DNA of 64,000 bases from Flavobacteriales bacterium (GTDB lineage Bacteria; Bacteroidota; Bacteroidia; Palsa-965). Shown in pieces: positions 2,296 to 63,817 of the stretch; within the stretch, counting starts at the first letter, position 1; each line of letters begins with the position of its first letter. The DNA is taken from NCBI GenBank assembly GCA_040377305.1, contig JBEIPA010000012.1, positions 1 through 64,000 of the forward strand, written 5' to 3'. The notes beneath the pieces are model-generated. The model searched no databases. It saw only the letters and a list, made by a program, of their open reading frames with translations, and was not told the origin of the DNA. Both the position numbers and the translations under genes were made by a program.

Positions 2296-2856
2296 TTAAA
2301 AATGGAAGGCTATACCAATCATAGATTGTCCTGTAGACAAGTCAAGGTAGATTCCTACGTTTTCTGATGCATGGAATTCTGTTCCAATGTGACCGTCCAG
2401 GTAAAGCCCGCTTGAGCTATGTGAGATATTGGTTTCCCCGCTGTAACCATCTTCCCAAACTGTTTTACGGATAGCAAAACCAAGTGATGCTGCCAGATAG
2501 AAATCCCAACGAGAGTTGGCTCCGAGCAGTTGGTCAAAGTAATAGGTGCCTTTAACTCCAACAGGAATTACAGTTGTACGGTAATAGTAGTCTCTGTATG
2601 GATGGTTCGGGCTTCCCCAGTGGTGATACTTGCGGTACGAGTACACCGTAATGAATGGCGCAAGTGTGAAGTTTCGTGCAACGTTCAACTCGTAGTCGGC
2701 GTGAACAACGGGCATTGTTTGTCCTACGTAGCCGTAGTAACCAATACCAAGTCCAATGTTCAACGTGTTACCGTATGATTCTCCGGTATTTTCCTGCGCT
2801 TCTGCGACAGTAAACAAGGAGAGACAAAGTGCAATTGTAAGCGTAATATTTTTCAT
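2296..2856 (-). CDS. Outer-membrane beta-barrel protein
   Basis: Signal peptide, alternating beta-strands, C-terminal Phe. Confidence 0.75.
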   Translation of the reverse strand: MKNITLTIALCLSLFTVAEAQENTGESYGNTLNIGLGIGYYGYVGQTMPVVHADYELNVARNFTLAPFITVYSYRKYHHWGSPNHPYRDYYYRTTVIPVGVKGTYYFDQLLGANSRWDFYLAASLGFAIRKTVWEDGYSGETNISHSSSGLYLDGHIGTEFHASENVGIYLDLSTGQSMIGIAFHF

Positions 2857-2892
2857 TTGAGGGTAGATTGATTGTGGTTAAAATAGTATTTG

Positions 2893-3537
2893 TTAGATCT
2901 GGAATCCAACTGTGAATTGAATCCATTTGTTCTTGTAGCGTGGAGTAGATGAACTTCCGTCGCCATGGTTCGTCTGGAAATCCCAACCCATGCGACCTGA
3001 TATAACTACTTGTTTGATGATAATGTCGCCACCGGTTACGAAGCCGAGCACATTTTTACGCACGTTGTCGTTATTAAACTCCTGCTCGTGTGCAGTTGTG
3101 TTAGATCCCGACGTGAATGTGTTTTTCTGGTGAATGAGGTAGGAGTACTGCGGTCCTGCAACAACTGTAAAAAATTCAGTGGGCTTAATTTGAAATTGCA
3201 ACGGAATATCAAGATGCGTTGTTGTTTTCGTGTATGAGTATGGAGTTCCGAACATAGTTCCTCCACCTTGAAAACCTTTTTGTGAGACGAGTAGTTCGGG
3301 TTGAATACCCATGAATCGTCCAACCGGAATTCCGAAGTAAACTCCGCCGGCGAAACCAACGCGTGCGTCAGCTTCAAAATCCTCTCCTTGTTCATCCCAT
3401 ACATTGGAATAGTTAATGCCGGCTTTAACGCCGAAGCGGAATTGTTCACGCGGATCATCCGTGTCCTGTGCTATTGTTACTGATGACATTGTGCACGTAA
3501 CAAACAGTGTTGCTATGATTAGATTGAAATGTTTCAT
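2893..3537 (-). CDS. Porin-family / OMP beta-barrel protein
   Basis: Signal peptide; FGVKAGINYS, IQPELL.SQKG, LDIPL and VAGPQ motifs. Confidence 0.8.
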   Translation of the reverse strand: MKHFNLIIATLFVTCTMSSVTIAQDTDDPREQFRFGVKAGINYSNVWDEQGEDFEADARVGFAGGVYFGIPVGRFMGIQPELLVSQKGFQGGGTMFGTPYSYTKTTTHLDIPLQFQIKPTEFFTVVAGPQYSYLIHQKNTFTSGSNTTAHEQEFNNDNVRKNVLGFVTGGDIIIKQVVISGRMGWDFQTNHGDGSSSTPRYKNKWIQFTVGFQI

Positions 3538-45527: not shown

Positions 45528-45614
45528 TGCTTATGGTTTTCGGATTGACATCATTAGCGTTTCCTTCAAATAACTATAACTGAAAAGTGGTTGGCAACAA
45601 TTACACTCTTATGC
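45528..45614 (-). repeat. Heavily eroded copy of the attC-like repeat
   Basis: ttatggttttcggattgacatcattagcgtttccttcaaataactataactgaaaagtggttggcaacaat aligns without gaps to the consensus; upstream gene's TAA sits at its end. Confidence 0.7.
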
Positions 45615-49444: not shown

Positions 49445-49498
49445 GAGGTGGGTGTTGTTCGCTGGTCTATTTGGAATATGTGCTGTTAGCGGCTGATT

Positions 49499-50563
49499 TC
49501 ATATTTTTAGTTTAAACTTTTCAAACTTATTTCCATTTTGTTTGTAAACTCCGTCATTGTCAGTTCCAAGCCAAATTATTCCGCTGCTGTCTTGGTAGAT
49601 AGATACTAGCAAGACATTTTCTGTACCCTTTTTTACTTCAAGGTTGGTGAGCGTTTTACCGTCATATTTCCAAACTCCACCACCATAAGTAGTCATGAAT
49701 AAATTACCATCTTGATCTACAATTCCTGAGTTGAAATAATGGGGTTTTTCTTTTCGAACACCCTTTATTATTTCATATTGTAAATTGTTCGATTCAATTT
49801 TATACTTGCTTATAAAATTGCTCAACCAAAAATATCCGTCTTTGTCTTGAATGATTGAACGAACACCGCCAGCAGTGCCATCTGGGAGAATTGAAAGTTC
49901 TTTTTCATCAAACCACATAAACGATTTTCCATCGTATCGGAACGCACCTGCTACAAAAGTTCCAAACCAAATATTTCCGTCTTTGTCTTTATTTATGCCA
50001 TAAACTGAATAAGGGTTATTGCTATTAAAAGGGCTGATTAGCGTGTCAATTCCAAACGCTTTATTTAAATCTTTCCGTGGCAATTTTAATTCAAAAAGAG
50101 AATCGCCACTATAACGGAATAAATCATTTGCATTGTAGCCAAACCATAAGTCATTCGGTAAAAGTTTCCATTGGTTATGTGACGATTTTATTGGCTTTAA
50201 AGTGGTAAATTGATTTCCGTCAAATTTGCTTATTCCTTTGTGTGTTTCGATGTATATGTTTCCGTCAGTATCTTCTTGAATACCACGGATTGAATCGTTC
50301 ACTAATCCGTCTACTGTTGTAAATTGTTTTAACTCGTTTCCATCTAAAGAATAGATACCGTTTCCATTGCTACCAAACCAATATTTTCCTTTTGAGTCTT
50401 GAAATATTCTCCAAATTTGATTATCCAGTTCAGAAATCACTTTGCCAATTTGTACAGTTTCTGTTTCAGTCTTTTTGTGTTCAGATTGCATCTGTCCTTT
50501 GCATGAGAGGAAACTAATCGAAACAAAAACTATTGAGATTGTTTTTATAGTGGTAATTGTCAT
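49499..50563 (-). CDS. Beta-propeller (Reg_prop-repeat) lipoprotein; cassette gene
   Basis: Lipobox FLSC; repeated I.QD..G.IWFG; flanked by GTTAGCGGC (49485) and GCCGCTAAC (50593). Confidence 0.85.
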   Translation of the reverse strand: MTITTIKTISIVFVSISFLSCKGQMQSEHKKTETETVQIGKVISELDNQIWRIFQDSKGKYWFGSNGNGIYSLDGNELKQFTTVDGLVNDSIRGIQEDTDGNIYIETHKGISKFDGNQFTTLKPIKSSHNQWKLLPNDLWFGYNANDLFRYSGDSLFELKLPRKDLNKAFGIDTLISPFNSNNPYSVYGINKDKDGNIWFGTFVAGAFRYDGKSFMWFDEKELSILPDGTAGGVRSIIQDKDGYFWLSNFISKYKIESNNLQYEIIKGVRKEKPHYFNSGIVDQDGNLFMTTYGGGVWKYDGKTLTNLEVKKGTENVLLVSIYQDSSGIIWLGTDNDGVYKQNGNKFEKFKLKI

Positions 50564-50594
50564 TTCAATATTAATATGGCTGGTTTAAAGTTGC

Positions 50595-50680
50595 CGCTAA
50601 CATTTCGCGGATTGGCGTCGCGCGCTTTTCCTTCTAATAAATATACGTGAAAAGCGCAAAGTGCCAATGCGCGATTAGGG
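50595..50680 (-). repeat. attC-like site, short class, with a mutated gene-proximal core
   Basis: cgctaacatttcgcggattggcgtcgcgcgcttttc...gaaaagcgcaaagtgccaatgcgcgatta. Confidence 0.85.
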
Positions 50681-51121
50681 GCTGATAGCTCTTATCGGTT
50701 TCCAAACGAAATAGAACGCTCCAATAAGTATGTTCACAAGCGAAATAATATAAACTGAATTATACGTTTCAGACCTATAATAACTCAATCCGGCTTCTGT
50801 GTGCATATTCACTCCGGGATGAGAATTGTCGACGATGCAAAATGCGAAAATTAGAATTCCGATAGCTTGTAATATAAAAATGGATCCTTTAGCCAATCTA
50901 CTCTTTACTTTTCGTGTCTGTCGAATAAAAACAAAGTAACAGACTGGAAAGACAACAAATAAGAAAAAGTAATTGTACATGATTGAAGTCACGTGCATAC
51001 CAAAAGTCACACCATCATGAATGTCCTTGGTCTGGATTCCAACGGAAGGGATAATCAGTGAAGAAGTCAACACGATCAGAAATGCCGATCCTAATTTATT
51101 GAGATTAGTGAAGTCTGTCAA
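50675..51121 (-). CDS. Membrane protein; cassette gene
   Basis: Four TM segments; stop codon in the repeat end. Confidence 0.65.
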   Translation of the reverse strand: MTDFTNLNKLGSAFLIVLTSSLIIPSVGIQTKDIHDGVTFGMHVTSIMYNYFFLFVVFPVCYFVFIRQTRKVKSRLAKGSIFILQAIGILIFAFCIVDNSHPGVNMHTEAGLSYYRSETYNSVYIISLVNILIGAFYFVWKPIRAISP

Positions 51122-51163
51122 CGTTCTTATGTTTGGAGTCGCTCAGTGCTTTTAGCAGTAGGG

Positions 51164-51694
51164 TCACACTTCGGCTTGAAGCAGTTTGTCAATACCTCGA
51201 ATTATCAAATCGCGATGGGCATAAAATGATTTCGGAAAATCTTCGGTACCAACATGTGGGCGCTTTTCCAATGCAAACCAATTGCGGAGACCTATCAGGT
51301 TCTCTTTTTTACGTGCCAATAGATACCGTGAATCAACCGCAACCTTATAGAAATATAGTTCATCAGTGAGTGTAGCTTTCTGAATCGAACCGCATTCTAG
51401 ACATTTTATAAGGCCGATCTTTTTGTCCAGTTCATCTGTTTCGGAAAACATTAGCGGATACAGATTCATTAGCCACGTTGGATCTTTCATCCAAACTTTA
51501 CCTCCGAAAAGTTCATTTACAATTATTCCATTGTCAGGCTTATAGCACGCGGAAATTTCAGAGAAAGTCGCGTTAGTATATCGATCCTTAATTACAGCTA
51601 TGTGCTCTTCATAAATCCGACGGAATGGGAAGGTGAACTGAGCTTTAGCAGAACAGGTAGGGCAAACCACATCAATGTCATAATTAATCGTCAT
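51164..51694 (-). CDS. Hypothetical protein with two CxxC motifs; cassette gene
   Basis: CPTC and CLEC. Confidence 0.7.
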   Translation of the reverse strand: MTINYDIDVVCPTCSAKAQFTFPFRRIYEEHIAVIKDRYTNATFSEISACYKPDNGIIVNELFGGKVWMKDPTWLMNLYPLMFSETDELDKKIGLIKCLECGSIQKATLTDELYFYKVAVDSRYLLARKKENLIGLRNWFALEKRPHVGTEDFPKSFYAHRDLIIRGIDKLLQAEV

Positions 51695-51706
51695 GTGGAC
51701 AATTAC

Positions 51707-51790
51707 GCTTAACGTTTATGGATTGGCGCCGCGCTTTTTCCTTCTAATAAATATACGTGAAAAGTGGAGGGTGACAATACGCTGTTACCC
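51707..51790 (-). repeat. attC-like site, short class
   Basis: gcttaacgtttatggattggcgccgcgc...aatacgctgttaccc. Confidence 0.85.
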
Positions 51791-51807
51791 GTAGCAGTTG
51801 TATCAAA

Positions 51808-52170
51808 CTACTGCTTATCTGTCTCATTTTTGAACTCCTCGAGCATGCGATAAAACATATCTATTGATTCCAAATGCTGCTGTTTCGATGGTATCGTTTC
51901 CAGCATAACGTTCCAATCGATTTCTCTCGGTTCGAAGCCCATGCATTTGGCAAGAATCATATTGGCCCAACCTGCTGTGGATTCGTAATAGTCAAGTTTG
52001 CTAGCAACCCAGTCGTGAAATGGGTCTGATTGTAATTCAAATTTGTCTTCAACCAGCGCATGATGGTAACCAGAAATGTAAATGTGTATACTTTTTAAGG
52101 TGAGTTCTCCAGTGAACATTGCTGGTCGACCTTCTATTTGCTTCAACACCGGATAACAGTTCAGTATCAT
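51808..52170 (-). CDS. Hypothetical protein; cassette gene
   Basis: 120 aa; RPAMF..., F.DWVA..L..YES..GW. Confidence 0.7.
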   Translation of the reverse strand: MILNCYPVLKQIEGRPAMFTGELTLKSIHIYISGYHHALVEDKFELQSDPFHDWVASKLDYYESTAGWANMILAKCMGFEPREIDWNVMLETIPSKQQHLESIDMFYRMLEEFKNETDKQ

Positions 52171-52176
52171 ATTTTG

Positions 52177-52260
52177 CGATTAGGGGTTTGGGGAATTGCG
52201 ACTCTCTTGTCCTTCTAATCAATATACATAAAAGCGCGTGGAGCCAATGCGCTGTTAGCA
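52177..52260 (-). repeat. attC-like site with the left arm degenerate
   Basis: Right half ccttctaatcaatatacataaaagcgcgtggagccaatgcgctgttagca is intact. Confidence 0.75.
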
Positions 52261-52264
52261 CCAG

Positions 52265-52765
52265 TTATTGTTTGCTCCGCTCTTCCCACCACTTTTTTAT
52301 TTCCTGTACTCTTGTCGAATCAGTGATAGAACAGTCGACAAAGAAATTTGGGTACGGCTCATTTTTTCGATACGAATCAATTATATTCATCACCTGCCCT
52401 CCCAATGTAGAAAAATCATCACTGCCTGGCTTCCAATCGGATGAAATTGATTCCTTGACGCATTTAGCACGCCGCTTGGATTCTATTAATGTCATCAAAT
52501 AATTTAAGTCAGATTCCTTAATCCAATCCGATTTGGCTCTGTTTCCAGTTGTCAGGCGATAAATGGTATATATTCCCCTTTCTTCGAATTTGAGCAGTTC
52601 AACATAATCTACCACTGTAATTCTGTGAAAAAAAATCCAATCGTATTTATGGCGTTTTTGCTTATAGCGGTGGGTCGCTTCATTTAAATTAGCTCTTTCC
52701 ATTGAGTCTGCATGGTCCGAACATGCTGCCAGACTAATTGCAAATATTAAGAGCAGTCTGATCAT
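52265..52765 (-). CDS. Hypothetical lipoprotein; cassette gene
   Basis: Lipobox LAAC. Confidence 0.72.
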   Translation of the reverse strand: MIRLLLIFAISLAACSDHADSMERANLNEATHRYKQKRHKYDWIFFHRITVVDYVELLKFEERGIYTIYRLTTGNRAKSDWIKESDLNYLMTLIESKRRAKCVKESISSDWKPGSDDFSTLGGQVMNIIDSYRKNEPYPNFFVDCSITDSTRVQEIKKWWEERSKQ

Positions 52766-52776
52766 ATTAAAATTGG

Positions 52777-52856
52777 TGGTAACGTTTTTCGGATTGGCGC
52801 CGCGCGCTTTTCATTCTAATAAATATACGTGAAAAGAGCCCTTGAGCTGGTTAAGA
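52777..52856 (-). repeat. attC-like site with the right arm degenerate
   Basis: tggtaacgtttttcggattggcgccgcgcgcttttcattctaataaatatacgtgaaaag. Confidence 0.8.
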
Positions 52857-53258
52857 ATTGGTGTTTTCCCGATGTGCCACTTTGAACAGCATTGCGATTT
52901 GAATAAGCCCAAGAACCAGGAATGGAATTGCTGTCCACAAGTAAATGTCAGTCCCTCGCCAATAGCAATCAGGAATGATGAAAAATTGATAATGGACAAT
53001 TTCAATCGTGAGGAGAATGAATCCTGCAGCGAAAAATTTGAGAGACCTTAAGTTCGAAGTTGCAATCGCTAGTATTAAGCAAAGTAGTCCGATGAAATAT
53101 ATTAGTGCTATGAAAAAACTGTCGAGGGTTGTTAGCGACAAGTTAAAAGCCATTAGTCCAATTGTAGGGAATGAGAATTTGTTGCCGCTTCTAAATTGTA
53201 TCAAAGTTAAAACGAGGCAAGCAATTTTCAGAAATAATTGACTTCTTCTGGAGATCAT
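52851..53258 (-). CDS. Membrane protein; cassette gene, start reassigned to ATG 53258
   Basis: MISRRSQLFLK..., four TM segments; the upstream ORF extension is repeat translation. Confidence 0.65.
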   Translation of the reverse strand: MISRRSQLFLKIACLVLTLIQFRSGNKFSFPTIGLMAFNLSLTTLDSFFIALIYFIGLLCLILAIATSNLRSLKFFAAGFILLTIEIVHYQFFIIPDCYWRGTDIYLWTAIPFLVLGLIQIAMLFKVAHRENTNS

Positions 53259-53266
53259 ACGCTTGC

Positions 53267-53352
53267 TGCTAACGTTTTGCGGATTGGCGCCGCGCGCTTT
53301 TCCTTCCAATAAATATACGTGAAAAGCGCATGGTGCCAATGCGCTGTTAGCG
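53267..53352 (-). repeat. attC-like site, short class, intact, 86 bp
   Basis: tgctaacgttttgcggattggcgccgcgcgcttttc...gaaaagcgcatggtgccaatgcgctgttagcg. Confidence 0.9.
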
Positions 53353-53359
53353 TATCGTG

Positions 53360-53842
53360 CTACCGACTTTTGTTCTTCGATTTATTGCGAGCTTCAAATT
53401 CTGCGATCAGGGTGTTCAATTGAATTACCTGTTCAGTATTAATTGAACCTGTTTGTTGTGCTACAACTATATTGTCGATGACATAGTCGTATTCATGAAT
53501 GTTCTTTATTTTATTTCTTCGGAGAGCATCCTGAATCGCATCCTTCTTTTTGAATTGAAGTCCCGCACTTGCAATCAATTGCCAGAATTTGTCACTGTCA
53601 GGCCCCGCAGTTTCATTCCAGTAGATTAGAAAGTCATGTTCAAGATATTTGAGACTGGCGACCTTTCTGAATTGCGGCTCAGGATTTAGTGCCAATTTCC
53701 TAGTATTGGATGAAAAGAACAAAAGTGGCTCCTTGATGGATGCAGGCAAAGTTGACGATTCAGAAACTACCTGTTCGGCAATATCGATTGCTTTAACCAA
53801 TTCATTGGCTCGCTCTTCATAAATCGACTTCTTGGTAGTCAT
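53360..53842 (-). CDS. Hypothetical protein; cassette gene
   Basis: 160 aa between two repeats. Confidence 0.75.
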   Translation of the reverse strand: MTTKKSIYEERANELVKAIDIAEQVVSESSTLPASIKEPLLFFSSNTRKLALNPEPQFRKVASLKYLEHDFLIYWNETAGPDSDKFWQLIASAGLQFKKKDAIQDALRRNKIKNIHEYDYVIDNIVVAQQTGSINTEQVIQLNTLIAEFEARNKSKNKSR

Positions 53843-53852
53843 AGGGCATGTA

Positions 53853-53939
53853 CGCTAACGTTTTGCGGATTGGCGCCGCCCGCTTTTTCCTTCTAATAAA
53901 TATACATGAAAAGCGCGTGGTGCCAATGCGCTGTTATGC
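53853..53939 (-). repeat. attC-like site, short class, intact
   Basis: cgctaacgttttgcggattggcgcc...ggtgccaatgcgctgttatgc. Confidence 0.9.
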
Positions 53940-53944
53940 GGTAG

Positions 53945-54388
53945 TTATTTTATCTCAGAAACGTGAATGTCGCTACATGTTATCACGTTGATGATATGTC
54001 TTGCCGTTACGACAACATAGTGCCGAATTGAACTTTCCGAATTTAATTGGAATCCCAGCGTTTCATTTCTGCAGTATGTGAGGTAAGATGATTTCGTGTA
54101 AACTCTAATGCGATCGCCGTCGTACTCGCCAAATACGCCAGCGTCATAGCTTTCGTTAACAACGTGATATGCGATATAAGACGTAAAATGTAATCGATAT
54201 AATGCGCCGGAGTCGAAATTTACCGGGTAAACCGGACCTATATCGGTTTGTGATATGTTTAAACTCTGGGAAAGTTCGGACACTTCGCCTGCAATCAGAT
54301 CAATTATCAATTCATTCTCGCTGGGTTCAAATAATTTATCAACTAACAGGTTTCGGCAAGCATTAACTATGTCGTATGGTGTTGTCAT
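53945..54388 (-). CDS. Hypothetical protein; cassette gene
   Basis: 147 aa between two repeats. Confidence 0.75.
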   Translation of the reverse strand: MTTPYDIVNACRNLLVDKLFEPSENELIIDLIAGEVSELSQSLNISQTDIGPVYPVNFDSGALYRLHFTSYIAYHVVNESYDAGVFGEYDGDRIRVYTKSSYLTYCRNETLGFQLNSESSIRHYVVVTARHIINVITCSDIHVSEIK

Positions 54389-54395
54389 AAATTAC

Positions 54396-54481
54396 GCATA
54401 ACGTTTTGCGGATTGGCGCCGCGCGCTTTTCCTTCTAACTAATATACATGAAAAGCGCGTGGTGCCAATGCGCTGTTAGGC
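54396..54481 (-). repeat. attC-like site, short class, intact, 86 bp
   Basis: gcataacgttttgcggattggcgccgcgcgcttttc...gaaaagcgcgtggtgccaatgcgctgttaggc. Confidence 0.9.
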
Positions 54482-54904
54482 GTTGGACTTTCCTGAAGTT
54501 CCTTGAAAAACATCTTTATATTCAGGATGCTTCTTTTTGTCACTTGCCGAGAGCACGGTTCGCAATGCATTAGCGAGCACCCACTTCATGGATCGATCTT
54601 CTTCTTTATAGAAATGTTCGAGTAATTTGTCTTTCGCAATCGATCGGGCCGATTTCTCAGTTAGTGCTCTGATAATGCCTTCTCTTATACGCGAATGATG
54701 CGGAAGGTCAAGGTGTTTAACCAGGATTGGGTAGGCCTGTTCGTACGAACCGAGAAACTTGTTTTCTAAATGCTCGACAGCACGATTATTTACTAAATCA
54801 TAAACACTTTCTACAATACATCCTACGGCATTCAGTTCACGAACAAGTGTCTCTTGGTCTTTGAGAAGCATCTGATGAAATTCTTGTTTTTCAAGCTCGT
54901 TCAT
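54476..54904 (-). CDS. Helical, HEAT-like hypothetical protein; cassette gene
   Basis: IREGIIRAL and MKWVLANAL; TAA overlaps the repeat core. Confidence 0.75.
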   Translation of the reverse strand: MNELEKQEFHQMLLKDQETLVRELNAVGCIVESVYDLVNNRAVEHLENKFLGSYEQAYPILVKHLDLPHHSRIREGIIRALTEKSARSIAKDKLLEHFYKEEDRSMKWVLANALRTVLSASDKKKHPEYKDVFQGTSGKSNA

Positions 54905-54917
54905 GTACGTGTCTTGC

Positions 54918-55049
54918 GCCTAACGTTTTGCAGATTTGCGATGGGCGGGCTTTTTAACACAACTGGTCATTCGGAGAACTGAACTTTCGGTAACCACAAA
55001 ACTGTCTGCGGAGAACGAAACCCTGCCTATTGCAAATGTGCTGTTATGC
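54918..55049 (-). repeat. attC-like site, long class, 132 bp
   Basis: gcctaacgttttgcagatttgcgatgggcggg...ccctgcctattgcaaatgtgctgttatgc. Confidence 0.85.
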
Positions 55050-55061
55050 GTTCGCCATTCT

Positions 55062-55673
55062 TTACTCATTGGTGATGTCCTCAATTTTAGTTGCAAATTT
55101 TCTGTTGTCCTTTGAGATATGTTCGTAGTTGTCTTGTCCAACAAAAAAACTCGAAGGTGTCCAACTGTTTGTTAAAGGAGTTTTCAAATTGTCCAAGTAA
55201 TATTGTCCTGAAACTTCAAAGTCAAGAATTGCAAGTTGAAAAGGGTAGATTTTATATAACTGTTTCAATATTGTCGCAAAGAACTTTTTCAACTCGCTAG
55301 GGACTTTTGGGTTTTCAGTCCAAGTTTTGTATTCAGAACCGAACACCTTTTCTATTGCTGCTGTGTAAAAACAAATGTCAAACCAATTAAAGCCAGTTTC
55401 TACTGGCTCGTCTTCTCGTATATTGTATGTCATAAATGGAATTGCATAATTGTCAAGGTGCAAAACTCCAATATGTTGAATATTTACAATGTCAATTGGG
55501 ATTGAATTATTATTTACGTCAAAAGGTCCTTCAACGTTTTTTAAAGACCAAATAAAGTCAGTGTAAAGCCTTATTGGTTCGTTGTCTGCACTGGGACAAA
55601 CTTGAATAGCAAGTTCGTAAAAACCACCTGTTCTTAATTCTTTGTCAAGAAGTATATCGTTACTTTTTGTCAT
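55062..55673 (-). CDS. Hypothetical protein; first, integrase-proximal cassette
   Basis: 203 aa flanked by GTTATGCGT (55043) and ACGCATAAC (55705). Confidence 0.78.
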   Translation of the reverse strand: MTKSNDILLDKELRTGGFYELAIQVCPSADNEPIRLYTDFIWSLKNVEGPFDVNNNSIPIDIVNIQHIGVLHLDNYAIPFMTYNIREDEPVETGFNWFDICFYTAAIEKVFGSEYKTWTENPKVPSELKKFFATILKQLYKIYPFQLAILDFEVSGQYYLDNLKTPLTNSWTPSSFFVGQDNYEHISKDNRKFATKIEDITNE

Positions 55674-55704
55674 TCGTTCTCTAGCGCTGTAGTTTTATAT
55701 GGTG

Positions 55705-55753
55705 ACGCATAACTAGTTTATTTGCGCTACATCGTAGCGCAAATAAACCCTAG
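55705..55753 (-). other. Putative attI-equivalent primary integration site
   Basis: Last TAAC core of the array, abutting a perfect 15-bp inverted repeat gtttatttgcgctac-atc-gtagcgcaaataaac rather than an attC body. Confidence 0.65.
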
Positions 55754-55803: not shown

Positions 55804-56685
55804 TTAAAGTGAATCGAAAGGCGAACGTATTTTCCCGATTGCATGGGCGCTTACGTGGGTATAAATCTCTGTCGTTTTGCTGCTCGCATGCCCCAACAAC
55901 TCCTGAATGTATCGAAGATCTGTTCCCGACTCCAGCAGATGAGTGGCAAAACTGTGCCGTAACCAATGAAGTGTGACCGGTTTCGTAATTCCCGCTCGGG
56001 CAACACTTTGCTTCAGCACCTGCTGCAAACTCCGGGCATCGTAGGGTTGACCGCACTCTTGTCCTTCGAATAGATATTTTACAGGACGATACGATTTGAA
56101 ATATTCACGCAACTGCTCGAGAATCTTTTCACTCAACGGAACAATTCTGTCCTTACGGCCTTTCCCATTCTTAATGATGACGAGCATGCGATTCGAATCA
56201 ATATGCTCCGGCAAAAGACCGATCAATTCTCCACTGCGCAATCCGCAACTGTAAATGAGCGATAACATAGCTTTGTGCTTGGTATTTATTGTGCGTGTAA
56301 GCAGAAGCTTTACTTCTTCTTTACTCAGCACATTCGGTAGTGGCTTTCCGCGACGCGGCCGATAGATCAATTCCGGATTCAGAATCTTATTGTGCAGAAT
56401 CCGGAAGTACAACTTTATTGCGTTGATACATTGATTCTGAAAGGACACAGACAATTCCTTCGCAATGATGTATTCCGAATTGAAACGCTGTACATCTGTG
56501 TTTGTAATCACAGAAACATCCTTGTCGCAAAAGGAAATAAATGTCCGTAAGCATTCCGTGTAAACCTTTATCGTACCATTACTATAACGGCGCGACTTCA
56601 GCCAGTCACTGAACTGTTCCATAGATGGAGTGGGTGCTCCCCGTCCGACCGGCTCGTCCGGGCGGGCATAAGTGTTCTCTTTCAT
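55804..56685 (-). CDS. Tyrosine recombinase / integron-like integrase
   Basis: YS..TI..Y N-terminal domain, LPNVLSKEEV, YSCGLRSGE, GKGRKDR, HWLRHSFATHLLESG.DLR.IQELLGH, TTEIYTHV, C-terminal RSPFD. Confidence 0.92.
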   Translation of the reverse strand: MKENTYARPDEPVGRGAPTPSMEQFSDWLKSRRYSNGTIKVYTECLRTFISFCDKDVSVITNTDVQRFNSEYIIAKELSVSFQNQCINAIKLYFRILHNKILNPELIYRPRRGKPLPNVLSKEEVKLLLTRTINTKHKAMLSLIYSCGLRSGELIGLLPEHIDSNRMLVIIKNGKGRKDRIVPLSEKILEQLREYFKSYRPVKYLFEGQECGQPYDARSLQQVLKQSVARAGITKPVTLHWLRHSFATHLLESGTDLRYIQELLGHASSKTTEIYTHVSAHAIGKIRSPFDSL

Positions 56686-56795
56686 ATTTTATCTTTTTCG
56701 TAGCGTACATATAGCTGCAAAGTAAAATGATAAAAATGAAATAGCCGTTTGTAAACGTTTGTAAACGGATAATCTCCGGTATTCGACGAAATTCA

Positions 56796-57043
56796 TTGTC
56801 ATCCCGATAGCTATCGGGATGAGCGTAGCCGAAGGGTGACAAGTGAAGGCCAGACTGAACGTATCCAGATAGCGATCGGGAGACGGGTGATAAGCAGCGT
56901 AGTCGAATTCACTTCTGTTGATCTTGGTACATTGTCAGATTGAGCACTTCGACAGGCTCAGCACAGGCTTCGCCGAAGGTTGACAAGCAGAATTGTGAGA
57001 CTCAGCGCCTGACCGCTGTGGAGCGTAGCTGAAGGTTGACGAA
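56796..57043 (+). repeat. Cluster of REP-like units with nested insertions
   Basis: tgagcgtagccgaagggtgacaa units; perfect palindrome atcccgatagctatcgggat; ttcgacaggctcagc insert. Confidence 0.7.
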
Positions 57044-57101: not shown

Positions 57102-60100
57102 CTACTGACCCCGAATAACTCGTATCGTCTGAACACTGCTACCCACCAACCTCACCGAATAAATTCCATCCGCCCAATCATTCATATCCAACTGCGTAGT
57201 GGTTTTTCCTTCGACGTTCTCGGCATAAACCAGTTTGCCGTTTGCATCAAACACTTCGAGTGTGGAAACGTTTGCATCTGCTGTCCACTGCACCGTTGTG
57301 AAATCAGCAGCTGGATTTGGATAAGCGAGTACTCCATTGCTTTGTGTAACACCATCGATTCCCATGCACAGGTCGACAAACACAATGGCATTCGCGGAGT
57401 TGTAGCAACCGTTTCCATCCGTGTAATCGTAGGTCAAGGTTACGAAACCTGTTCCTGCTGCTCCAGGGAAGAATTGATTTCCGATAATTCCCGGACCGGA
57501 ATACGTTCCGCCTGCTGGTGAACCGCCTGTAAGTACCAGCGGATTACTGAATACACAGAACGAAGTATCGTTGCCCATCGAGAACTGAACATTTGGTAAT
57601 GGATTCACCGTGACATTGATTGCAGTCGATGTAACTCCGCACGATCCGTTGGAAACATCAACCGTGTAACTTCCTGATTGCGTCACCACAATTGAACTTG
57701 TTGTTGCACCTGTACTCCAGAGATACGATGTACCACCACTAGCAGTGAGTGTAACCGCACCGCCTGCGCAGAATGTTGTCGGTCCGCCTGCAGAAATGTT
57801 TGCAGTAGGAGGAGGGACAACCGTTACCGAAATAGAATTGGAGTTTGCAGTACATCCGTTCGCGCCTGTCACCACACAATCGTAAGTTCCGGATGCTGAA
57901 ACAAGAATGGATTGCGTTGTAGCGCCTGTGCTCCACAAATAGCTATTCGCACTTGCTACCGTAAGCGTTACGTTTCCACCTGTACAGAATGTTGTTGGTC
58001 CACCTGCAGAAATGCTTGCAGTAGGAGCCGGATTCACAACAACCGTAATGGTGGAAGTTGTATCGCTGCACATTCCGTTGGAGACGATGCAATAGTACGT
58101 TCCTGCAACACTTACGTTGATTGCAGTAGTTGTTGCACCTGAACTCCACAGGTAATTAGTGCCGCCACCAGCTGTGAGTGTTACAACATCGCCCTGACAA
58201 ATTGTAGTAGATCCGGAAGCAGTGATTGTTGCGCTCGGAGTTGAGTTTACTGTAACCGTTATCGGCGATGAAACTGCGGTGCATCCATTCGCCGAAGAGG
58301 TAGTGACACTATACGTTCCTGAAGTAGAAACTGTAATGGCTTGCGTCGTTGCGCCTGTGCTCCATAAGTAACTATTCGAAGCATCTGCTGTTAGTGTTAC
58401 GTTGTCGCCCGCGCAGAAACTCAGCGGACCTGATGCCGTGATTCCTGCTGTTGGCGCTGGATTAACTACCACAGTTACCAGTGAAGTTGTATCAGTACAA
58501 GTTCCATTGGAAACAACACAGTAGTAATTTCCTGCAGTACTTACGTTGATTGCCGTCGTTGTTGCTCCTGTGCTCCACGTGTAAGTGGTGCCACCACCTG
58601 CAGTTAAGGTTACCACATCTCCCTGACAAATTGTTGTAGGACCAGACGTGCTGATCGTTGCGTTCGGAGTTGTGTTCACGGTAACTGTTACCGGCGATGA
58701 TTGTGCAGTACATCCATTCGCTCCGGTGGTAATTACGTTGTACGAACCGGAAGTTGTGACAACGATTGAAGAAGTTGTTGCACCTGTGTTCCACAAATAA
58801 CCGTTAGCAGCATTGGCAAACAATGTTACGTTATCGCCAGCGCAGAATGTTGTAGGTCCGCCAGCTGTAATGCTCGCTGTTGGTGATGGATTTACCGTAA
58901 CCACTACGGATGAAGTTGTGTCTGTACACGATCCGTTTGATACAACGCAGTAGAAAGTTCCGCTTGTGCTTACGGTGATTGCTGAAGTTGTTGCTCCTGT
59001 ACTCCACAGGTAAGTTCCACCACCGCCTGCAGTGAGTACAACGTTATCTCCCGAACAGAATGTTGTTGGTCCGCCGGTTGAAAGTGTTGCAACTGGTGGC
59101 GCGATTACATTCACATTCACGACCTGTGAATTCGAAACACAACCGTTTGCATTGGTCACGGCTACGGAGTACGCACCGCCCGAAGTCACCAGTATCGTTT
59201 GCGTAGTAGCCCCGTTGCTCCATAAATAAGAAGATGACATCGGAACAGAAAGTGTAACGCTTCCACCCGAACAGAAGGTTGTTGGACCGCTTGGTGTGAT
59301 TGTCGCATTCGGCATTGCAATAACGTTGATGCGTGCTGTATCTGTTACGTTCACGTTTCCGCAACCGGGCTGTGAGATTGTAATCGTAATGACTTGTGTT
59401 CCTGATCCCATTCCGCTTGTGTTAATCGGAATGGTCAATGCAGAACCGGTTCCGTTTGTTGCTGCAGAAACTGGAGTGCTGTTCCAGAATGCCTGATACG
59501 TTACGCCAACCTGACTTGTGTTCAATGTTACGTTTGAAGTTGTAACATCATCGCAAATGGTTGCACCGGAAACTGTCATGGCCTGCGACATTGGATTGTT
59601 GTACACAGCAATGACGGGTGTGCGTGTCGGTGATGGGCAACCGGCAGCAGAAACAATGACAACCCAGAATGTATCTGTTGCTGTAAGATTGGTGAGCGTG
59701 TACGTTCCGGAAGTTTGTCCGTTGATCGGAGTTCCGTTAACTGCAACGCTATACCACTGATAACTTCCACCAACTGGTGCACCACTCGCAGTGAGTACTG
59801 CATTTCCGCTTCCGCAAACGGTATCGTTAACTGTTGTTGCAGCTACAGGAAGCGGATTCACAACCACCGTGTTTGTTTGTGGAGTAGTTACGCATCCGTT
59901 AGGATTTGAAATGACGAGTGTATAAACTCCTGCGTGAATTGCAGCTGCATTGAGAATAGGAGCAGGCACTTGCTGATTCGAAGTGAAACCATTTGGTCCG
60001 TTCCAGGAATAAGTTGCTCCTGCAATCAACGGTGAGCTGAGCTGAATGATATTTCCTTCGCACACGGGTGAATTCGAAAACGCAACCATGTTGTTGTGAT

Positions 60101-63100
60101 ACAACGCGAGTACTTCATCTGAATTCAACGCGCGATTGTACACGCGACCATCGTCGTAAATTCCTTCGAAGATTGCATTGCCCAATCCGTTCGCCTGTCT
60201 GCCAATCTGGAAATTCGTGATCGTGTTTGTAATAACACCGGTGTACGCCAAATCTCCGGTCTGCACACCGTTCTGATAAATTTTCAGTCGCGAACCATTG
60301 TACGTTACAACAATATGATGCCAGGTGTTGTACGGAACGTTTTGTGAACTGTTCACATACGTTGCACCGTTGATTCTCCAACGAACACGATTCATTTGCT
60401 GGCCTTGACCAACGTCATAATAATTGTCGAGTCCCATGTACAATCCGTTGTTCTGCCACTTGTTCATGAGTGGACTGAAGAATCCGTAGTTGGGATTTGT
60501 TTCGTAAATCCACAACGACATCGTGATCTGCGTGGTGAGCGCCTGAAAATCTCCTGGGTTACCTGCGTCGACGTACGCGTTTACCACGGGTTGAAGCGCG
60601 TGTGCAGCCTGACCGAGTCGATCGTTAACGTAAGCGCCGTTCCAGTTCAGTGTTGCGTGATTATTTCGTCCGCTCGAATCGGCCGTGTTGCCATCGAACA
60701 TCCAGTGTGCAATTAATCCTGTGTAAAGATCAACTGCAGGTGCTGTCGCGAGATTGATAGTCGCGGTTACTGCTGTGCGTCCTGTTTCGCATCCGTTAAA
60801 CAAAATGGATACGTAGTATGTTGTGGTCGTACTCAACGTTGGAGTAGAATAGGTGGCTCCAACGTGGAATGGACTTCCGCCCACTGCAGCCGTGTACCAA
60901 TTGTATGTTGCACCAACCGGCGCACCGCTTGCACTTAGTGAAACACTTCCAGGTTCGCATCGTGATGCTCCGACCGTAGTTGGTAATGCGGGAAGAACAA
61001 TTACGGTAACTGTCACCGAACTGATGATGACTGAACAGCCGTTCGGGCCTGTAGCCACAACCTGGAAAGTAGTATTTGCTGTTAAGTTTCCTGTTGCGAA
61101 TGAAAGTGTATCGCAGTTTCCTGCTTGTGCCGCTCCGATGTTTGCACTCGTTGCTGCATTCTGTAATTGATATGTAACGCCTTTTTGTGTGCCGATTACT
61201 TTAATTGAGCTCGCTGTGTTCGGACAAACCTGGGTTGGAACAGCAACCAGATTCATTGCATCCGGTTGTTCCATCATCAGTGAAATCATTTCCTGTTGTG
61301 AAATTGCCCGGTTGTAAATCCGGAAATCATCGAACGCGGCATTCGCATACGCATCTCCGGCCCACTGACTTCTTCCGATGTAACACATGGTGCGGAGAAC
61401 GTTTTGCGGAGTCGTGTGCGTACCGGCTGCAATCTGGGTACCGTTCATGTAAACCCGCGCCGCATTTCCGGTAAGCGTGTAGGTGAGTAACTGCCACGTG
61501 TTCGTGCCGGTTGCTGTTGCACTCGATGCAACACCACCAGACACAGTACCGTTATAAACTTCTCCATGCGGACGACCATTTGTACCCTGAGACAGACACA
61601 GCAACACGTTGTTGTTGGCAGGACCGTTCGCAAAATCGAATACCCGACTCCAACTGGTGTACGTGTTTACTTTCACCCAACAGCTTACTGTGAAATCTCC
61701 ATTGAAGTAAACACCGTCTGGTGCATCAACATATCCATTTGTTCCGTTGAACTGAAGCGCTCCACCTGGATTTCCAAAACGATCGTTCACCGCCGTTACA
61801 CCACCGATCATAGTTCCGTTCAATCCGTTTCCACTCGCATCGTTTGCATTCGCGTTAAACGGATAGTGCAATATCAATCCTGTTGTAAGCGACGACACCA
61901 GTGAAGATGTCTGTGTCATGTTGTTAGGTCCTTGAACAACACTTACAACGGTTGTAACTGTTGCCGAGCAACCTGCTTTTGTAATGGTGAGCGTATACGT
62001 GCCTGCATCAGACAAACCAGCATTCGGAATAACCGGATTTTGTTGTGTGGAAGAGAATCCGTTCGGTCCATTCCACTGGTAAGTTGCTCCACCGGTAACG
62101 TTCGCTCCAAAAAGTGTAAGTGCAGTTCCGCTGCAAACAGGAGAATTCGCACTTGCTGCATTGAGCTGATAGAAAATGTAGCGACTGACTGTTCCATTCA
62201 CATCGTTCCAATGACCGTGTGTGAGCATGTGACCAAAATCCTCATTACTCGCATTGTTCGGTTCGCCGGGATACCATGTTGTGTAACCATTGGGATAGCC
62301 GCCTTCCCATGCAAACGCTCCTTCTGTGACTTGATCAGTGTATCCGATGAACGCACCTGTAGAAACGTGAAGTGCAAGCATATTGTTTGTGGTGTAATCA
62401 GGAATGTATGCGAGATTTCCTCCATTAGAAATGCATGTAGTTCTTGCTGTTGCCCACGTTTGCTGCACATTACTCACAAAATAGTTTCTTCCGTTTGTCG
62501 ATCCAACAAAGCGAAAAAGTGAAGCCGATGGAATGTCTCCCAATACTCCGTTGACTGTAAATGTTGCTGTGCTTGCTGCGCCAATGGAAACGGGCGTGTT
62601 TGTGATTACTCGAAGCTTGTATCCTGTTCCCGATGGCATTGCTTCCGGAACTGTACACGTAATAGTTGCTGTTGCCGCATTCGAAACGAGTGATCCTATT
62701 TCAACCGGATTCGTGAATGCACCATTCGCATCCGAAATCTGAACACTGTATGTGTTTCCGTTTGCAATTGCACCTGTTGATGAAATGTCGACCGTGATTT
62801 GTTGTCCGGCACACAGCACAGAAGGAGAAATATTCGTCACTGTTCCGGAAACTACCCCTACTGTTGACAGCGTTGTCACTTCGTCTGGTGTGAGCGCGCG
62901 ATTGTACACACGGAATTCATCAATAGCGCCATTCATCGGATACCAGTCTGATGCATAGCGAGCGAGCATGAGATTTTTTGTGTTCATCGTTGCGAAATTC
63001 GGCGCGCCCGGAGTTGTCTGAACAAGAGTTCCGTTGATGTACATTCTCTGTTCAGTGGCATCCATAATGTACACGAAGTGTTGCCACTGGGCTGTGGAAA

Positions 63101-63593
63101 TTCCAGACTGAACAAATTGGCATGTAGTCATACTCACATTGCCAATGCGGTTGTTCATTGCACCTGCTCCCGTGAGTGAAGTGTTGAACCAAAGTCCGCC
63201 ACCTGCATCACCATCTTTCGCAAATACACAATGATCGCCGCCTGCAACGACATTGCCCGTGCCATTTGTTCCGGTAACACTATTTAGTTTCAGCCAGAAT
63301 GAAAATGAACATGCAGTTGTAAACTGAAGTGTGGGGCTGTTTGGAATTGTTACTTCACCCCAACCGGTTGTACCGTTGAAGTTGTAAGCCGAGTTTGCAT
63401 TTCCCCACTGATCCGTAGTTGGAGCAGCAGTGCCGCCCGGAATTCCATTGTTTCCATTTCCACTGTAGTCAAGTGCATTTCCGTTGAACGGATAATATCC
63501 TACGAGTCCGTTCGATAAATTCACTTGCGCGAATGATGACATCAGACATGCAAACACAGCAATTCCAGCGAGTAGTTTCTTCTTCAAATTCAT
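57102..63593 (-). CDS. Large T9SS-secreted surface protein: three LamG-like domains, a C-type lectin domain and many Ig-like repeats
   Basis: MNLKKKLL signal peptide (TACTTTTG at 63624-63631); three Y/W.F.GN..D.SG..D..R.YNRAL domains; GEPNN..WND; GPTTFC.G..VTL...YLWSTGATT repeats; YPNP CTD. Confidence 0.9.
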   Translation of the reverse strand: MNLKKKLLAGIAVFACLMSSFAQVNLSNGLVGYYPFNGNALDYSGNGNNGIPGGTAAPTTDQWGNANSAYNFNGTTGWGEVTIPNSPTLQFTTACSFSFWLKLNSVTGTNGTGNVVAGGDHCVFAKDGDAGGGLWFNTSLTGAGAMNNRIGNVSMTTCQFVQSGISTAQWQHFVYIMDATEQRMYINGTLVQTTPGAPNFATMNTKNLMLARYASDWYPMNGAIDEFRVYNRALTPDEVTTLSTVGVVSGTVTNISPSVLCAGQQITVDISSTGAIANGNTYSVQISDANGAFTNPVEIGSLVSNAATATITCTVPEAMPSGTGYKLRVITNTPVSIGAASTATFTVNGVLGDIPSASLFRFVGSTNGRNYFVSNVQQTWATARTTCISNGGNLAYIPDYTTNNMLALHVSTGAFIGYTDQVTEGAFAWEGGYPNGYTTWYPGEPNNASNEDFGHMLTHGHWNDVNGTVSRYIFYQLNAASANSPVCSGTALTLFGANVTGGATYQWNGPNGFSSTQQNPVIPNAGLSDAGTYTLTITKAGCSATVTTVVSVVQGPNNMTQTSSLVSSLTTGLILHYPFNANANDASGNGLNGTMIGGVTAVNDRFGNPGGALQFNGTNGYVDAPDGVYFNGDFTVSCWVKVNTYTSWSRVFDFANGPANNNVLLCLSQGTNGRPHGEVYNGTVSGGVASSATATGTNTWQLLTYTLTGNAARVYMNGTQIAAGTHTTPQNVLRTMCYIGRSQWAGDAYANAAFDDFRIYNRAISQQEMISLMMEQPDAMNLVAVPTQVCPNTASSIKVIGTQKGVTYQLQNAATSANIGAAQAGNCDTLSFATGNLTANTTFQVVATGPNGCSVIISSVTVTVIVLPALPTTVGASRCEPGSVSLSASGAPVGATYNWYTAAVGGSPFHVGATYSTPTLSTTTTYYVSILFNGCETGRTAVTATINLATAPAVDLYTGLIAHWMFDGNTADSSGRNNHATLNWNGAYVNDRLGQAAHALQPVVNAYVDAGNPGDFQALTTQITMSLWIYETNPNYGFFSPLMNKWQNNGLYMGLDNYYDVGQGQQMNRVRWRINGATYVNSSQNVPYNTWHHIVVTYNGSRLKIYQNGVQTGDLAYTGVITNTITNFQIGRQANGLGNAIFEGIYDDGRVYNRALNSDEVLALYHNNMVAFSNSPVCEGNIIQLSSPLIAGATYSWNGPNGFTSNQQVPAPILNAAAIHAGVYTLVISNPNGCVTTPQTNTVVVNPLPVAATTVNDTVCGSGNAVLTASGAPVGGSYQWYSVAVNGTPINGQTSGTYTLTNLTATDTFWVVIVSAAGCPSPTRTPVIAVYNNPMSQAMTVSGATICDDVTTSNVTLNTSQVGVTYQAFWNSTPVSAATNGTGSALTIPINTSGMGSGTQVITITISQPGCGNVNVTDTARINVIAMPNATITPSGPTTFCSGGSVTLSVPMSSSYLWSNGATTQTILVTSGGAYSVAVTNANGCVSNSQVVNVNVIAPPVATLSTGGPTTFCSGDNVVLTAGGGGTYLWSTGATTSAITVSTSGTFYCVVSNGSCTDTTSSVVVTVNPSPTASITAGGPTTFCAGDNVTLFANAANGYLWNTGATTSSIVVTTSGSYNVITTGANGCTAQSSPVTVTVNTTPNATISTSGPTTICQGDVVTLTAGGGTTYTWSTGATTTAINVSTAGNYYCVVSNGTCTDTTSLVTVVVNPAPTAGITASGPLSFCAGDNVTLTADASNSYLWSTGATTQAITVSTSGTYSVTTSSANGCTAVSSPITVTVNSTPSATITASGSTTICQGDVVTLTAGGGTNYLWSSGATTTAINVSVAGTYYCIVSNGMCSDTTSTITVVVNPAPTASISAGGPTTFCTGGNVTLTVASANSYLWSTGATTQSILVSASGTYDCVVTGANGCTANSNSISVTVVPPPTANISAGGPTTFCAGGAVTLTASGGTSYLWSTGATTSSIVVTQSGSYTVDVSNGSCGVTSTAINVTVNPLPNVQFSMGNDTSFCVFSNPLVLTGGSPAGGTYSGPGIIGNQFFPGAAGTGFVTLTYDYTDGNGCYNSANAIVFVDLCMGIDGVTQSNGVLAYPNPAADFTTVQWTADANVSTLEVFDANGKLVYAENVEGKTTTQLDMNDWADGIYSVRLVGSSVQTIRVIRGQ

Positions 63594-63817
63594 GATTTTT
63601 TTGTTTGTTTCACGATCACAATACAAAAGTATTGCCGTGACAGCGGGCAAATTTACCGGACAGAACTCGTAACCGCGATTAAGGACTTACTTTTGGTATT
63701 TCCATGACGTAAGTCGTTGAAAACTAGCAATTAAAGGTACTTGGATGTGAACTCACAGTACCCTTGTGTCAAGGTTTTGTCGATTGACTTATCTTCGCAG
63801 GAACAAACAAAAAACAC

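Follow-up and report, generated by a model that had tools for sequence, protein, structure and literature searches.

Does a run of small genes separated by hairpin repeats, lying behind a recombinase gene, work as an integron does, and if so, with which enzyme? The question is raised by a contig of a Flavobacteriales bacterium (assembly GCA_040377305.1, contig JBEIPA010000012.1, positions 1–64,000; hereafter the window, meaning the whole stretch of 64,000 nt that was analysed). About ten small-gene units lie there on the minus strand between 55713 and 49488, running leftwards from a tyrosine recombinase gene at 56685–55804. A sequence-only reading had proposed that each gene plus its repeat moved as a unit, with crossover at a GTT core. 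Most of the cassettes are bracketed by matching ends of their own, such cassettes have moved between genomes as GTT, gene and hairpin, and their exchange lies within GTT. It is likely that the recombinase, which lacks the I2 helix of integron integrases, inserts and excises these cassettes as an integron integrase does.

Cassette ends and the array

The six pairs of reverse-complementary words that had been noticed at the two ends of single genes all lie where they were placed (55043/55705, 54475/54917, 53933/54395, 53346/53851, 52254/52774 and 49485/50593), with matches of 9/9, 8/8, 8/8, 9/9, 9/10 and 9/9, respectively. Since the array is on the minus strand, each cassette starts at the right-hand word of its pair, with GTTA at 55713, 54924, 54402, 53859, 52783 and 50601. 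At the variable positions 5–9, these six pairs agree across the gene at 27 of 30 positions, and permuting the partners yields a mean of 12.8 (p = 0.0028, 720 permutations), for pairs chosen after the fact. Four further units had been left unclaimed (starts at 53273, about 52157, 51713 and about 51122), and their variable bases match at 1, 3, 0 and 0 of 5 positions. Taken together, all ten units match at 31/50 positions versus 18.0 when shuffled (p = 0.0015, 200,000 shuffles, positions 5–9), the 3' end having been placed by eye in the two most worn units. Pairing across one repeat gives 17 of 45. Own-end pairing is above chance.

The same holds among relatives. At least 80 recombinase loci were gathered, 73 of them with enough sequence, and sites were detected from the inside of the hairpin only, leaving the cassette ends unused. 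This retrieved 68 sites downstream on the recombinase strand (258 kb) versus three upstream (606 kb), with 0 and 1, respectively, on the other strand. Own ends match at 256 of 300 positions in 60 units (null 115, maximum 151 in 20,000 shuffles) and at 198 of 210 in the 42 units of at most 1.5 kb (null 87.5, maximum 120), significance levels that are overstated because related loci are not independent. Pairing across one repeat reaches 152/335. Units longer than 1.5 kb likely hide missed sites. Complementary own ends are a textbook trait of integron cassettes, and matched ends alone are nothing new for integrons; what departs from the textbook is the enzyme, the core consensus and the hairpin geometry, together with the changed hairpins of older copies and the resistance genes that lie in such cassettes.

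Could the repeats instead be REP-like (repetitive extragenic palindromic) or terminator hairpins whose ends match by chance? The sites are palindromic and located after stop codons, as such elements would be. The permutation tests, the exact GTT breakpoints between genomes described below and the lack of any Rfam match at gathering score (4227 families; sub-threshold miRNA hairpins only) reduce this explanation to a negligible probability, and the separation from simple REPs or terminators drawn in the sequence-only reading stands.

The array opens with an attI-like docking site (55703–55750, minus strand), a palindrome followed by a core ending in GTT at 55713. Cassette 1 (54925–55713; gene 55062–55673; ends 9/9) carries a long hairpin site of the 122-nt class (54921–55046), in whose loop (54930–55040) three to four degenerate repeats of about 21 nt can be seen. 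Three cassettes with short sites follow: cassette 2 (54403–54924; gene 54476–54904; site 54399–54478, 76-nt class), cassette 3 (53860–54402; gene 53945–54388; site 53856–53936) and cassette 4 (53274–53859; gene 53360–53842; site 53270–53349). No relative of cassette 3 was found in metagenome contigs. Cassette 5 (52784–53273; gene about 52851–53258), not among the pairs noticed earlier, has a site at 52780–52839 that has lost its left end; the profile match spans positions 21–80 only, and there is no matching 3' end (1/5). Cassette 6 (52158–52783; gene 52265–52765) ends in a site at 52187–52257 whose right half has decayed. The units that had been skipped beyond it are unit 7 (51714–52157; gene 51808–52170; site 51710–51787), of uncertain start and with ends matching at 3/5, and units 8 and 9 (50602–51713; genes 51164–51694 and 50675–51121; worn site 50598–50678), which have only a remnant site between them. 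Matched own ends are therefore kept in six of the ten units, the other four being worn as described. Cassette 10 (49470–50601; ends 9/9) contains a beta-propeller gene (49499–50563; Reg_prop repeats, PF07494), and its hairpin is truncated after about 20 nt. A decayed site of the short type lies further down the same strand (45536–45601, minus strand; nhmmer E 5e-6), and the array probably once reached it. Among 17 non-recombinase proteins, Pfam and NCBIfam identify just the propeller and an esterase, plus two weak matches, and PADLOC matched none of 14 cargo proteins. On the other side of the recombinase gene, positions 57102–63650 encode a secreted protein of 2182 amino acids with lectin-like and immunoglobulin-like repeats and a tail of the type IX secretion system kind, ordinary for the phylum.

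Recombinase, docking site and hairpin

The recombinase (55804–56685, minus strand; 293 amino acids; PF00589 and PF13495) is co-oriented with the cassettes. It passes narrowly the cut-off of NF040815, 'site-specific tyrosine recombinase/integron integrase' (220.9 vs 220). The IntI family TIGR02249 comes second, below its cut-off (212.2 vs 265 bits), and the cut-offs of XerC and XerD are not reached either (196/329.6 and 184/335.15 bits). The catalytic residues R150, K175, H240, R243, H266 and Y275 are intact and invariant in 49 aligned sequences. The IntI insertion with the I2 helix is absent: profile positions 248–269, which span residues 179–242 of Vibrio cholerae IntI4 (PDB 2a3v), hold 20 residues where IntI4 has 62, about 42 fewer. 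An alignment-based model (predicted local distance difference test, pLDDT, 83.5), which replaced a poor single-sequence fold (pLDDT 41.7), predicts no extra helix at this place; its best fold matches are XerA and IntI4.

This family is widespread. At least 7988 database proteins match the recombinase at E ≤ 1e-40, and of 301 genomes sampled from the phylum, 74 have a match at E ≤ 1e-60, with 25 of these (this genome included) forming a close group of at least 55% identity. The system appears common in Bacteroidota and probably does without the part of the protein that integrons are held to need. Most relatives (344–417 amino acids) have an N-terminal segment of 50–90 amino acids that is absent from the window recombinase, as read at 56686–56720, and from its closest matches (265–305 amino acids). 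Small palindromic REP-like repeats are present within the start of the recombinase gene (56640–56670) and upstream of it (56790–57030). A promoter scan near the gene gave five matches, compared with 2.6 ± 1.8 by chance. In six related loci (L002, L009, L034, L045, L049 and L057), a related open reading frame begins immediately behind the recombinase stop and precedes any docking site. On a Parabacteroides plasmid (L228:9290–13270), a distant homologue precedes immunity-type genes (Tdi1, SMI1/KNR4), and the sites between these genes are much shorter and end in CATTA, not GTTA.

An attI-like motif ending in GTT lies 3' of the recombinase stop in 56 of 73 relatives versus 20 of 1400 control windows, mostly 90–110 bases beyond the stop codon (90 in the window). 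For more distant recombinases (41–50% identity), downstream hairpins were detected in only two of 14, about nine having an attI-like core by eye. Four attI-like cores were found in this genome, heading the window array, five units on C12 and two units on C17, and at a contig end on C57; on the arrays of C12 and C17, the one recombinase would act in trans. Docking cores or sites without an adjoining recombinase are seen in the genome (G000) at C12:10967, C17:200492, C57:176, C4:18504 and C49:14805 and 17977.

The matched stem described in the sequence-only reading is real, but its length is 15 bp, not 7. Across the 42 units, positions 1–9 and 12–15 are paired (0.76–1.0), position 10 is paired half the time and pairing is at chance from position 16; position 11 is A opposite C in 36 units, which is T·G on the bottom strand. 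Spacers of 5 and 9 nt, leaving a 1 × 5 loop, occur in 62 of 68 sites. The inner stem is best paired in register and free of bulges in 46 of 62 sites, and 48 of the 62 have A facing C at position 10 of this stem (again T·G on the bottom strand). Extrahelical bases were sought on the R''–L'' arm, and an extra base was present on the expected arm in four of the 62. The bottom strand folds more stably in 48/68 sites. As for the GTTA/TAAC cores, YAAC/GTTR is kept, but the integron consensus GTTRRRY/RYYYAAC (PMC3053210) is found in only 4 of 60 units.

Several insertions touch these sites. In three cassette-1 homologues (L178, L184 and L198), the same element end lies within the hairpin, a few bases from its edge, as would be expected of an insertion sequence that targets the sites. 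On a Chryseobacterium plasmid (L227:15490–17350), a group II intron (ltrA) lies antisense inside the TAAC core of a site, and a short palindromic element is found at three GTT points of the same array. Sites of the attC type are targets of class C group II introns.

A divergent but otherwise ordinary integron, in which a true IntI elsewhere serves the array and the neighbouring recombinase is incidental, would share the layout, the GTT/AAC cores, the stop codons at the 3' core and the own-end pairing, all integron traits, and would agree with IntI being the second-best family of the recombinase (212 bits). We consider it very unlikely. A tblastn search of the genome retrieved this gene, as the sole close copy, and three distant recombinases at 25–35% only; the attI-like site follows the stop codon of this recombinase family in most relatives; and neither the core consensus nor the bulge-free inner stem is that of attC.

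Movement of cassettes and turnover of hairpins

The proposal that a gene and its downstream hairpin move together is borne out by recent transfers. Five pairs at 94–99.8% identity share the downstream hairpin (0.94–0.99): 99.6% gene identity with a hairpin identity of 0.96 and 98.4% with 0.98 (upstream flanks 0.52 and 0.53), 99.7% with 0.99, 94.3% with 0.94, and a tet(X2) pair at 99.8% with 0.98 (upstream flank 0.52). The upstream flank is at background (0.52–0.53) in all three pairs where it is measurable. One comparison gave 16 locus–cassette matches, about half of which had no recognisable sites and were not counted as pairs.

Breakpoints between genomes fall at the G of GTT for window cassettes 1 and 10, which have other neighbours in the other genomes, as expected from the crossover at the GTT core that had been proposed. 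Cassette 1 recurs in two other genomes, G026 (89%) and G181 (73%), from exactly the G at 55713, where its copies sit behind hairpin sites and not a docking site. In G027, a homologue of cassette 10 (84%) starts at the G of GTT, with an attI-like site immediately before it. The base at position 4 travels with the cassette that follows (41 of 42 paired), and the base preceding the G changes from one context of a cassette to another; therefore, the exchange lies within GTT. By analogy with integrons, the exact bond would be G|TT. When the window units are circularised at this point and folded, as the sequence-only reading had suggested, the circle junction is more stable than the array form in 5/5.

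A smaller mobile unit can be considered, namely the gene between its 15-bp inverted ends only, moving like a small transposon among resident hairpins. In the cassette-1 family, which comprises the window copy, two genome loci and those 23 of 47 metagenome loci with recognisable ends (26 members), mean identity over 231 pairs is 0.81–0.84 for the 15-nt ends, 0.70 for the body and 0.54 for the hairpin, the last being the value for unrelated cassettes (0.54). Six pairs at 89–97% gene identity likewise have hairpins only 0.47–0.73 alike, one of them with an apparent insertion element in the hairpin. Both observations suit a gene-only unit. All five of the most recent transfers found include the downstream hairpin, though, the first cassette has no hairpin before it, and in a Riemerella experiment, 140 bp of 3' stem-loop is co-integrated (PMC13148043), which makes this explanation decidedly unlikely. 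Gene and repeat as one unit thus describes recent transfers well; on a longer time scale, genes keep their ends but change hairpins.

Under the integron-like reading that we favour, a cassette would leave as a circle. The bottom strand of this circle, on its own, would fold across the two ends and the hairpin to form a long stem mimicking a double-stranded site, with a 15-bp outer arm, a 1 × 5 inner loop and a bulge-free inner arm. The recombinase would then join the folded cassette to the double-stranded attI-like site behind its own gene, and own-end pairing would therefore be under selection. Less surely, the top strand may sometimes be cut at the AAC end, releasing a gene with the hairpin of its upstream neighbour as a perfect circle; such circles would swap hairpins among genes. 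This looser choice of strand may arise because there is neither an extrahelical G nor an I2 helix. For attC sites, those without extrahelical bases are reported to lose strand choice and recombine at R'' (PMC2727003).

Older copies that keep their ends but carry different hairpins suggest such a second crossover point. Alternatively, cassettes move as proposed and the old hairpin differences result from gene conversion or fast compensatory change, with no second crossover point. Within a locus, 14 of 112 pairs of unrelated genes do have hairpins at least 0.9 alike, versus 1.4% of random pairs; hairpin identity is weakly correlated with body identity (rho 0.33), and one of the six pairs above has an apparent insertion element in its hairpin. 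Conservation across the 26 family members, however, drops from 0.92–1.0 to 0.38 two bases past AAC, a sharp edge at a recombination core, where too little sequence would be shared for homologous recombination. We give conversion a substantial chance, though one well below even.

Other points weigh against the integron-like reading or parts of it, besides the relatedness of the loci. Four of the ten window units have no matching ends. The attI motif was defined by eye on the very loci in which it was then counted, the link between enzyme and site is positional only, and three other attI-like sites have no adjoining recombinase. The bottom-strand bias is small (-21.3 vs -19.8 kcal/mol), 19 of the 68 sites going the opposite way. 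The weak correlation between hairpin and body identity is expected from slow turnover by any route. Circle junctions were sought in contigs of four runs, and no joint was interpretable as a circle; those seen had short sides or unknown inserts and fit other arrays.

Resistance genes and known systems

Cassettes with sites of this family contain tet(X2), erm(F), ere(D), estT and catB on Bacteroidota plasmids. The tet(X2) gene of a Sphingobacterium plasmid (L229:4877–6330) is flanked by full sites, and its ends match at 14/15 positions and show the mismatch at position 11. Three consecutive cassettes of a Riemerella plasmid (L231:11662–15346) hold estT, erm(F) and ere(D), and another holds catB (2418–3259); erm(F), ere(D) and catB are antisense within their cassettes. 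The erm(F) cassette and a cassette-1 homologue (L197) have identical 15-nt ends. Among plasmid matches, TnpF/'xerD' (43.5% identity to the window recombinase) is encoded directly before tet(X3) and tet(X5) in Acinetobacter, its annotated open reading frame being shorter than the stretch matched. Both genes start at GTT behind a small palindrome, like a first cassette (L225:6001–8330 and L226:4001–6232). The start end of tet(X3) is that of tet(X2), with 11/15 matching (3/6 in the core test), followed by half a hairpin. Altogether, 13 resistance-gene contexts were tried: six matched at 6/6, tet(X3) at 3/6, four gave no match (erm(F) in L230, blaOXA and a tet(X) cut by an insertion sequence in L231, and estT in L229) and two had no candidate pair.

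A broader proposal is that these loci belong to a second class of integron, with an I2-less recombinase and bulge-free hairpins, that is the main gene-capture platform of Bacteroidota. Its enzyme would cut both hairpin ends and hence re-pair genes with hairpins; it would have mobilised tet(X), erm(F), ere(D), estT and catB, and the TnpF/'xerD' before tet(X3) would be its recombinase. We hold this tentatively, at slightly less than an even chance. If true, the re-pairing of genes with hairpins would be a route to array-wide homogenisation of repeats. Integrons have been counted as nearly absent from Bacteroidetes (PMC9024848), and the I2 helix and extrahelical bases are held to enable cassette recombination, their origin being called a chicken-and-egg problem (PMC4792948). 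A cassette system that has neither, found at ≥55% identity in about 25 of the 301 genomes sampled from the phylum, makes this question of origin testable. Both the mobility of tet(X) and the uptake of resistance genes without homology in Riemerella, so far unexplained, gain a candidate mechanism from it, and surveillance tools, whose search is confined to IntI and attC, gain a site definition.

Searches of a library of open papers, including the accessible parts of PMC8618304 and PMC13616975, yielded no account of the system; subscription papers lay outside this search. The available text of PMC8138268 has an 'integron-like' recombinase subgroup whose insertion is 'not fully conserved' and describes no arrays, and that of PMC8693923 names tnpF-ermF-tet(X) without cassettes. 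A close published case is Riemerella anatipestifer, where a 27-bp leader, a gene (aph(3')-IVb, lnu(H) or blaRATA) and a 140-bp attC-like stem-loop tail integrate as a unit without homology, by a mechanism given as unknown (PMC13148043). We infer that this tail belongs to the present site family, which a Riemerella plasmid carries around resistance genes; that paper names neither an enzyme nor a site family.

Clusters of attC sites lacking integrases (CALINs; PMC9024848) resemble the integrase-less arrays on C12 and C17, but the attI-like core of the main array also heads these two. Xer-type recombinases (archaeal XerA, 5hxy/4a8e; NF040815) provide the best sequence and fold matches of the window recombinase, and in the integration of CTX phage by XerCD, a folded single strand mimics double-stranded DNA without extrahelical bases (PMC4792948). 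Unlike Xer, the window enzyme is accessory, patchily present and at the head of a cassette array, and is not the enzyme of chromosome resolution. With integrons, the system shares a tyrosine recombinase beside a docking site that heads an array of tandem single-gene cassettes, GTT/AAC cores, own-end complementarity, hairpin sites and exchange within GTT; with sedentary chromosomal arrays such as that of V. cholerae (PDB 2a3v), it shares a lineage-typical repeat (here the 76-nt site). It differs in that the enzyme lacks about 42 residues including the I2 region, the docking site is 3' of a co-oriented recombinase gene, the cores are GTTR-N5 and not GTTRRRY, the outer stem is 15 bp with a fixed mismatch, the spacers measure 5 and 9 nt, an extrahelical G is absent, hairpins reassort among genes and there are several docking sites per genome. 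The system probably works like an integron but is not a member by enzyme or site definition.

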